The translations under genes were made by a program, and so were the position numbers. A stretch of DNA of 64,000 nt from Escherichia coli (GTDB taxonomy: Bacteria > Pseudomonadota > Gammaproteobacteria > Enterobacterales > Enterobacteriaceae): assembly GCF_045037415.1 (NCBI RefSeq), contig NZ_CP173438.1; one strand, 5' to 3'. Within the stretch, counting starts at the first letter, position 1, and each line of letters begins with the position of its first letter. The notes under the pieces are model-generated. The model worked only from the letters and a program-made list of their open reading frames with translations, did not search any database and was not told the origin of the DNA. Shown one piece after another: positions 6,597-57,699 of this stretch.

Positions 6597-7839
<1,243 letters not shown>

Positions 7840-11912: not shown

Positions 11913-12158
11913 ATGCGAATTGAAGTCACCATAGCGAAAACTTCTCCATTGCCAGCTGGGGCTATTGACGCCCTGGCTGGCGAACTTTCCCGCCGTATTC
12001 AGTATGCGTTTCCTGATAATGAAGGCCACGTATCGGTACGTTATGCCGCAGCAAATAATTTATCGGTTATTGGCGCGACAAAAGAAGATAAACAGCGCAT
12101 TAGCGAAATTCTCCAGGAGACGTGGGAAAGCGCCGATGACTGGTTTGTCAGCGAATAA
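11913..12158 (+). CDS. dinI: DNA damage-inducible protein DinI (81 aa)
   Basis: Protein MRIEVTIAKTSPLPAGAIDALAGELSRRIQYAFPDNEGHVSVRYAAANN... is DinI; ATG at 11913. Confidence 0.93.
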   Translation: MRIEVTIAKTSPLPAGAIDALAGELSRRIQYAFPDNEGHVSVRYAAANNLSVIGATKEDKQRISEILQETWESADDWFVSE

Positions 12159-29454: not shown

Positions 29455-30206
29455 GTTGTCACCCTGGACCTGGTCGTACATTTAAGAAATTAAATCATTT
29501 CAACTTGGTTGTTAACGCAACCCGTATTTTGTTAACGCTGCGTTACGATGGAAAGTATGTCTGCGGAAATATTTTTAATAACTCACCCGCGCGTTGTATT
29601 TTTCTTTTTTTGTTCATACCAAAGTATTAAAACCCACGTAAATACGCTGTTATCTACGCAAAAAATATTTTGTTTTCTTTTAAATCTCCGTTTTCCGCTA
29701 TCAAAAATCACCAGACAGTCATTCTTCTTGCCCGTCGCTGATTGCTGCGATATGTCTTGCGCACAAGCCGTGACAAACCTCGTCTTTTTGCAGTAAAAAA
29801 TTGTCCACGGTGGTATGGAGAAAAAACAAGAACGTTTTACATGACGAAAGGACTACAGCGAAATATTTTTTATATGCATTATTAGTAAGTTAGCACCATT
29901 TGTATGATTTTTTAAAATTGTGCAATAAAAACCAAATGTACAACTTTTCTATCATTTCTAAACTTAATAAAACCTTAAGATTAACATTTTAATATAACGA
30001 GTTACATTTAGTTACATGTTTAACACTTGATTTAAGATTTGTAATGGCTAGATTGAAATCAGATGTAATCCATTAGTTTTATATTTTACCCATTTAGGGC
30101 TGATTTATTACTACACACAGCAGTGCAACATCTGTCAGTACTTCTGGTGCTTCTATTTTAGAGGCAGCTGTCAGGTGTGCGAACAATAAAAAAGCGGGGT
30201 TTCATC
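29455..30206. promoter_or_regulatory. csgBAC / csgDEFG divergent intergenic control region, including the csgD promoter and long 5' UTR
   Basis: 752-bp, visibly AT-rich non-coding block between divergent csgB and csgD. Known to integrate many regulators and small RNAs; individual sites were not mapped here. Confidence 0.8.
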
Positions 30207-54989: not shown

Positions 54990-55628
54990 TTAGCGTGGTC
55001 GAATCCCCTCAATAATAATCCGCTGCACGTTTTCAACCGTTTGATTGAAAAATACCTCATCGCGCAACGTCGCGCCTGTCACCGCCTCCACCTGAGGGGC
55101 AAAATCGGCGTAATGTTGAGTGGAAGCCCAAATCATAAAAATCAAATGCTGCGGATCAATCGGCGCGAGTTTGCCGCTTTTAACCCAACCGGCAATCAGC
55201 GCCGATTTCTCATCAATTAATGCCTTCAAATCGCCCGTCAGTTCATCCATTAACAGCGGTGCACCTGCCAGCATCTCCATACAGAACAGGCGCGAAGCCT
55301 GCGGATAATCGCGGGAAACTTCCAGCTTCAGACGGATGTACTCTTTGATCGCCGCCAGCGGGGCGAAATCTTCTCGAAACGCTTTTAACGGTGCCAGCCA
55401 GATATCGAGAATCTGCCGCAGTACGGCTATATACAGCGCCTCTTTTGACGGAAAGTAATACAGCAGATTGGTTTTTGAAACACCCGCCAACTCCGCGATC
55501 TGCTCCAGCCTTGTGCCGTGAAAACCGAATTGTGAAAAAGTGTCCAGTGCTGCGCTAAGAATCGCTTTTTTCTTCGCGCTCACTGCGCGCGAACGTTTAC
55601 CCGTTGTTTTCACTGCGCCTTGCGTCAT
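54990..55628 (-). CDS. rutR: TetR-family pyrimidine utilisation regulator RutR (212 aa)
   Basis: Protein MTQGAVKTTGKRSRAVSAKKKAILSAALDTFSQFGFHGTRLEQIAELAGVSKTNLLYYF... with TetR HTH; ATG at 55628. Confidence 0.93.
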   Translation of the reverse strand: MTQGAVKTTGKRSRAVSAKKKAILSAALDTFSQFGFHGTRLEQIAELAGVSKTNLLYYFPSKEALYIAVLRQILDIWLAPLKAFREDFAPLAAIKEYIRLKLEVSRDYPQASRLFCMEMLAGAPLLMDELTGDLKALIDEKSALIAGWVKSGKLAPIDPQHLIFMIWASTQHYADFAPQVEAVTGATLRDEVFFNQTVENVQRIIIEGIRPR

Positions 55629-55814
55629 GCGCTCTCCCCTCTTGTAGATTGGCAACAGGATAGCAAAACCCCCGCCCGGCCTCGACCTTCTGCACTCTCA
55701 TCGCGCACGAATGCATGTTTTATGTGCAACTGTTTTGACCGTTTAGTCCACTTTTTTTCAGGCATTTTAGACAACTTAACATTAACACATTAATAACATT
55801 CACTTTTTAAAAAC

Positions 55815-55830
55815 TGGCATCCGCTTTGCA
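55815..55830 (+). promoter_or_regulatory. Sigma-54 (-24/-12) promoter of rutA
   Basis: TGGCAT-ccgct-TTGCA matches the sigma-54 consensus TGGCAC-N5-TTGCA, about 30 bp upstream of the rutA ATG. NtrC dependence of rut is established knowledge. Confidence 0.75.
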
Positions 55831-55858
55831 AACAAGCCATTACGCGGCTGAAAAGGAT

Positions 55859-57699
<1,841 letters not shown>

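Follow-up and report, generated by a model that had tools for sequence, protein, structure and literature searches.

The spacer between rutR and rutA raises the question of which elements control these two genes, and whether the RutR-like box found there is the operator of the locus or only a degenerate match. The DNA analyzed here (the window, 64,000 nucleotides from Escherichia coli) has the gene content of the E. coli putA–rutR–rutABCDEFG region, with putA upstream and rutB-E downstream of the rutR/rutA pair in the RefSeq annotation. An earlier note, made from the letters alone, had proposed a strong sigma-54 promoter under NtrC control in front of rutA and, upstream of it, a loose RutR site with imperfect half-sites.

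The rutR–rutA control region of the window

Several complete E. coli genomes match the 501 bases around the rutR–rutA site at 100% identity, and this stretch occurs in 5,421 of 5,426 genomes. The corresponding 306 bp of K-12 MG1655 are 97% identical to the window, without indels, the two differing by 12 substitutions in the spacer, none of them in the NtrC half-sites, the RutR box, or the sigma-54 motif. With the same 16 bp at the same 114.5 bp from rutR and with the same neighbors as in the K-12 rutR–rutABCDEFG operator (Shimada 2007/2008; Nguyen Ple 2010; Nguyen Le Minh 2015), the element of the window shows no difference of substance from the published operator and promoter, being the same element and not a mere relative. 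The control region is therefore an already known and well-studied switch, and the flagged box is not new. The features discussed below are collected in Table 1.

Table 1. Features of the rutR–rutA region, in coordinates of the window
Feature	Sequence	Position	Strand	Remarks
rutR CDS		54990..55628	-	TetR-family regulator, 212 aa; RefSeq annotation of an identical E. coli genome
Conserved block near rutR	CAGGATAGCAAAA	55656..55668	-	reads TTTTGCTATCCTG on the rutR strand (TGnTATnCT), extended -10-like; speculative
Candidate distal NtrC site	TGCACTCTCATCGCGCA	55691..55707		3 mismatches to TGCACC-N5-GGTGCA; conserved
Candidate proximal NtrC site	TGCATGTTTTATGTGCA	55712..55728		3 mismatches; conserved
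RutR operator (RutR box)	TTGACCGTTTAGTCCA	55735..55750		center at about -98.5 from the predicted rutA start; 114.5 bp from the rutR ATG
IHF-like site	TATTAATGTGTTA	55783..55795	-	1 mismatch to WATCAANNNNTTR; between operator and promoter; putative
rutA sigma-54 promoter	CTGGCATCCGCTTTGCA	55814..55830	+	-24 GG at 55816-17, -12 GC at 55828-29; predicted start near 55841
Leader motif	GCAGGATGC	55861..55869	+	CAGGAWG in a GCA/UGC mini-hairpin
rutA CDS		55916..57007	+	363 aa, PGAP start; K-12 record: ATG at 55859, 382 aa

A sigma-54 promoter faces rutA

The TGGCAT-N5-TTGCA string that the earlier note had called a strong sigma-54 element is confirmed. It corresponds to TGGCATCCGCTTTGCA (55815-55830), which has a GG-N10-GC core and one mismatch to TGGCAC-N5-TTGCW, lies on the plus strand oriented toward rutA, and is 85 nt upstream of the rutA start at 55916. 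This is the sole match with at most one mismatch in the 64-kb window, a count that proves nothing alone because 3.8 are expected by chance. The identical 17-mer is reported as the sigma-54 ChIP-seq site OS10, assigned to rutA with a distance of 18 (PMC4591121; Bonocora et al. 2015), and this distance, taken with the K-12 start codon at 55859, predicts a rutA transcription start at 55841. Moreover, the locus is a peak of the RpoN holoenzyme in genomic SELEX, at 1073268 (PMC8743547; Shimada et al. 2021), and the motif is found with zero or one mismatch upstream of rutA in all 78 of the scanned loci described below.

Since PMC4591121 reports widespread sigma-54 sites without known transcripts, and the motif count in the window is not above chance, it could be argued that this is a non-productive site and not the promoter of rutA. 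However, its orientation is correct, its predicted start precedes the K-12 start codon by 18 nt, and the same survey enters OS10 as an intergenic sense site for rutA that had been previously predicted. Also, the motif is accompanied by upstream NtrC-like dyads in the 78 loci, and rut expression is reported to be NtrC-dependent (PMC10891134; Kremer et al. 2024), all of which makes a non-productive site very improbable. A scan of the rutR–rutA spacer for sigma-70 promoters gave no match by the criteria of that scan.

The RutR box is the mapped operator

A RutR box is defined as the 16-bp dyad TTGACCAnnTGGTCAA, with arms of 7 nt and a center of 2 nt. Read in this ordinary register, 55735-55750 matches the consensus in 11 of the 14 specified positions, with mismatches at positions 7, 11, and 15 and the spacer unchanged, and it carries the consensus A at position 4 and T at position 13. 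The 4-bp spacer attributed to it before was a parsing error, the half-sites having been cut at 6 nt instead of 7. Counting of consensus matches alone does not make the site rare in 64 kb, three matches with up to three mismatches being found in the window against 2.7 expected by chance, but better tests, namely a weight matrix and recurrence across species, exclude chance.

For the first of these tests, a symmetrised weight matrix was built from the 18 other sites in Table 1 of PMC2475637, the rutA site being excluded. With this leave-this-site-out matrix, 55735-55750 scores 16.15 bits and ranks first among 63,985 positions of the window, the next-highest score being 12.9 bits. The 15 other EMSA-positive RutR sites score between 3.7 and 20.0 bits, with carA at 20.0. 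Within the intergenic region, for which the earlier note had suggested such a scan, the box stands far above background and the rest scores at or below about zero. A second RutR site in the E. coli spacer was considered and rejected, the best remaining position (55759-55774) scoring about 0 bits and a single complex being seen by EMSA (PMC2952853).

Three further matches in the window, at 7781-7796, 12136-12151, and 29707-29722, score 11.4 to 12.9 bits and are apparently distant from rut. Many intragenic binding sites are known for RutR, and these matches could be minor RutR targets or chance.

The published data lead to the same place. By ChIP-chip and EMSA, Shimada et al. 2008 (PMC2475637) list in their Table 1 a rutA intergenic site, TGGACTAAACGGTCAA, with an 11/14 match at -114.5 from the nearest start codon, and report that this motif coincides with an earlier footprinted site. 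Read as its reverse complement, this sequence is exactly 55735-55750, and the distance from the center of the box (55742.5) to the rutR ATG (55628) is 114.5, equal to the published value. According to the same authors, consensus bases at positions 4 and 13 separate high-affinity from low-affinity RutR sites. RutR binds the rutA–rutR fragment in one complex with a KD of 8.6 nM, compared with 9.5 nM for carAB, and is released by uracil with an I0.5 (half-maximal release) of about 9 nM (PMC2952853; Nguyen Ple et al. 2010). Finally, four operator-constitutive substitutions in the box abolish the uracil-sensitive negative autoregulation of rutR (PMC4325133; Nguyen Le Minh et al. 2015). [quoted passage not shown]

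The earlier note was thus right about the place of the string and its relation to RutR, and the comparison with the mapped operator and carAB that it proposed shows identity with the published site and a similar affinity for both. What does not hold is its description of the box as loose, weak, or degenerate, given the match, the matrix score, and the nanomolar KD. The outcome that it named as refuting its proposal, a mapped operator elsewhere in the intergenic region with 55735-55750 at background, does not apply, the mapped operator being exactly 55735-55750. The reading of this sequence as a weak, mis-spaced site, with the real operator at another place in the spacer, could appeal to the three mismatches and to the frequency of such matches by chance (about 2.7 per 64 kb). 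Nonetheless, a published site with an affinity equal to that of carAB, a single EMSA complex, consensus bases at both discriminating positions, the top matrix score of the window, and no other positive-scoring site in the spacer already refute it, and we give it practically no credence.

Conservation of the elements and their spacing in Enterobacterales

Recurrence was assessed in a set of one genome per species with RutA, comprising 80 loci from Enterobacteriaceae, Erwiniaceae, Yersiniaceae, and relatives. Two of these loci had no upstream DNA, and 78 were scanned (79 including the E. coli reference locus). rutR is divergent from an adjoining rutA in 75 of the 80 loci. About 75 of the 78 loci have a RutR box that scores 13 bits or more and keeps a constant distance to the sigma-54 motif, the background rate of such sites elsewhere in the loci being 0.02 per kb. 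The distance is 79 to 81 bp in Enterobacteriaceae and 88 to 90 bp in the other families. Upstream, the GTGCA half of the proximal NtrC-like site is separated from the RutR box by 6 to 7 nt in 74/78 loci, covering three families. In alignments of 34 species of Enterobacteriaceae (A1) and of 37 species (A2), discrete conserved blocks stand amid freely varying sequence, and they correspond to the two NtrC-like sites, the RutR box, the IHF-like site, and the sigma-54 motif. What this analysis shows directly is the register of the RutR box, its score, and the conservation of every element with its spacing.

Erwiniaceae, Yersiniaceae, and relatives (L027-L080, for example L065:2256-2476 and L072:2227-2447; A2) have two tandem RutR-like boxes, the first scoring 13 to 20 bits and the second, nnGACCAnnTGCTCCA, being weaker (8 to 14 bits) and starting 19 bp downstream. 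In Enterobacteriaceae, E. coli among them, box 1 stands alone, with a distance from box to promoter about 9 bp shorter (80 versus 89). A helical phasing of the box relative to the promoter, for which the first scan gave distances of about 70, 80, and 89 bp, was discarded on alignment, the distance of 70 being that of the weaker second box in the 89-bp genomes. No phasing is claimed, because only two lineage-specific classes exist (79-81 and 88-90), which are too few independent events.

Candidate NtrC and IHF sites upstream of the promoter

The NtrC control of rut proposed before is supported by the reported NtrC dependence, and two NtrC-like dyads are conserved upstream of the promoter, 21 bp apart from center to center. 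Among 34 Enterobacteriaceae the distal one, TGCAC-N7-GCGCA, hardly varies, and its distance to the sigma-54 motif is constant; the proximal block reads TGCnT-N7-GTGCA, and its GTGCA half is invariant in both A1 and A2. Between the operator and the promoter, the IHF-like block is conserved in A1 as fits WATYAA-N4-TTR, with perfect matches in some species, and the lone K-12 difference inside it falls at an N position. Matches of this quality are common in the window, 22 being found against 34 expected for the NtrC pattern with three mismatches, and 77 against 63 for the IHF pattern with one.

The dyads and the IHF-like site keep their sequence and position in 70-odd species, and by consensus matches alone none of them reaches significance. 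A model in which NtrC would activate from dyads centered at about -142 and at about -121, and in which the DNA would bend at an IHF-type site near -52, is well supported by the sequence comparison. The rutAG promoter is drawn in PMC10891134 with NtrC sites and the RutR site; our literature search for coordinates of a rutA site from NtrC ChIP-seq found none.

On the other side of the dyads, 27 to 40 bp upstream of the rutR ATG, the CAGGATAGCAAAA block is nearly invariant in A1, with its variable column exactly at the n of TGnTATnCT, and reads TGCTATGAT in A2. CGACC at 55683-55687 was noted alongside it. From its sequence, TGnTATnCT (55657-55665 on the minus strand) may mark a further promoter of rutR, although it went uncalled in the sigma-70 scan. 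In that case, its upstream region would share DNA with the NtrC-like sites, an arrangement like that of glnAp1. The rutR promoter described in the literature is on the other side of the RutR box from this block.

A proposed two-signal model for the control of rutA

The explanation that we hold with high confidence for the locus as a whole is that rutA has an NtrC-dependent sigma-54 promoter and that the RutR box represses both rutA and rutR, this repression being released by uracil. The binding of sigma-54, the binding of RutR at this exact sequence with nanomolar affinity, its release by uracil, and the need of the box for autoregulation are shown in the literature. In the mechanism that we propose, the rutA promoter would need NtrC, the activator of nitrogen limitation, most likely bound at the two dyads about 120 to 140 bp upstream (55691-55728), and an IHF-type bend at about 55783-55795 would lie between these dyads and the promoter. 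One RutR dimer would occupy the 16-bp box, next to the proximal NtrC-like site on its promoter side and before the bend. In the absence of uracil, RutR would hold down rutA, and also rutR itself from downstream of the rutR start site, and the binding of uracil would release RutR from the box. The outcome would be an AND gate, with nitrogen limitation and pyrimidine availability both required.

As to how RutR would block a sigma-54 promoter from this position, we favor an interference with the assembly of the NtrC oligomer or with the loop that would join NtrC, IHF, and the promoter. This mechanism is preferred because a RutR footprint of about 26 to 28 bp would extend as far as the border of the proximal NtrC site, the DNase I footprint of RutR at carAB extending about 8 and 6 bp beyond the box.

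Another possibility is that the box is a roadblock that lies downstream of the rutR start and serves the autoregulation of rutR alone, without a direct effect on the sigma-54 promoter of rutA, which NtrC alone would control. The mutational evidence that we found concerns only a rutR-lacZ fusion (PMC4325133), and deletion of rutR left rutA mRNA without a rise in exponential phase (PMC10891134), which is what would be expected if NtrC is limiting and is also compatible with a minor role of RutR. Moreover, the literature on the effect of RutR at rut is not uniform, as PMC2952853 words its effect on rutABCDEFG as "activation." Nonetheless, PMC10891134 terms RutR the repressor of rutAG and rutR, and several papers, this one and PMC4325133 among them, describe it as a repressor of both wings. 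Also, the box is held in three families at 6 to 7 nt from the NtrC-like site and at 79-81 or 88-90 bp from the sigma-54 motif, and a pure roadblock in the rutR leader is disfavored because it needs no fixed spacing to either an NtrC site or a promoter. Based on this, a box devoted to rutR only appears unlikely.

Two further readings can be considered tentatively, as ones that we find possible though rather doubtful. In the first, RutR would be an anti-activator that blocks the assembly of the NtrC oligomer and not the polymerase; in the second, the CAGGAWG motif of the rutA leader would add a post-transcriptional input. The first is suggested by the strict conservation of the 6 to 7 nt that separate the RutR box from the proximal NtrC-like site, and under it the second, weaker RutR-like box of Erwiniaceae and Yersiniaceae would reinforce the anti-activation. 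No description of either reading was found in the available papers.

Comparison with related regulatory systems

The RutR box at carAB P1, TTGACCATTTGGTCCA, is like the rutA box in having the 16-bp register and the TTGACC and GTCCA arms, with similar affinities for both (PMC2952853). The rutA box differs from it by a G at position 7 and an A at position 11. The two sites also differ in their effect, RutR being positive at carAB, where it acts from -184.5 apparently by countering PepA, and negative at the rutR–rutA site, where its box adjoins the putative NtrC enhancer.

A likeness in architecture is offered by glnHp2, a promoter with NtrC, IHF, and sigma-54. At rutA as at glnHp2, tandem NtrC dyads, which are candidate sites in the case of rutA, lie about 100 to 140 bp upstream of a GG-N10-GC core, and an A/T-rich site of the IHF type, again a candidate at rutA, is found near -50. 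However, at rutA the site of a TetR-family repressor lies between the enhancer and the bend, and the binding of NtrC and IHF is predicted from the sequence comparison.

A conserved motif in the rutA leader and the start of rutA

Downstream of the promoter, GCAGGAWGC (GCAGGA-GC) is invariant in 35 aligned rutA 5′ leaders from three families, whereas the remaining leader diverges; the motif is present in 58 of 79 leaders. The motif region spans 55859-55878, with AAGGAT upstream at 55853-55858. We take CAGGAWG to be equal to the CsrA-binding CAGGA(U/A/C)G repeat of CsrB, and our literature search found no paper linking CsrA to rutA. A structured RNA in the leader was considered and rejected, RNAalifold giving a 2-bp hairpin with no covariation and the fold of the single sequence being no better than those of shuffled sequences (z = +1.28); a comparison of the leader with Rfam gave no match at E up to 10.

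The motif overlaps the K-12 rutA start codon at 55859. Between this ATG and that at 55916, in-frame stops or frame shifts occur in many relatives, including one E. coli genome. An upstream ORF or an N-terminal extension starting with MQDAAPR was also rejected, its ATG not being conserved in Erwiniaceae and its frame relative to MKIGVF being variable, with in-frame stops. The comparison of sequences suggests that this extension does not code for part of RutA and that a conserved peptide is unlikely. Moreover, several RutA crystal structures have 363 to 364 residues and one has 382. The K-12 start, with its 19-codon extension, is thus probably too far upstream, and the shorter form is probably the real one.

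Implications

The value of this follow-up is that of a correction, the flagged box being a real, mapped, and strong RutR operator and the sigma-54 promoter being established by experiment; the finding itself brings no new biology. The evidence on the start of rutA could support a re-annotation of this gene. Moreover, a small mechanistic study of the silencing of an enhancer-dependent promoter by a TetR-family repressor could draw on the comparative by-products of the analysis, namely the fixed spacing of the NtrC-like site and the RutR box, the second box of other families, the leader motif, and the K-12 rutA annotation, which is probably too long.
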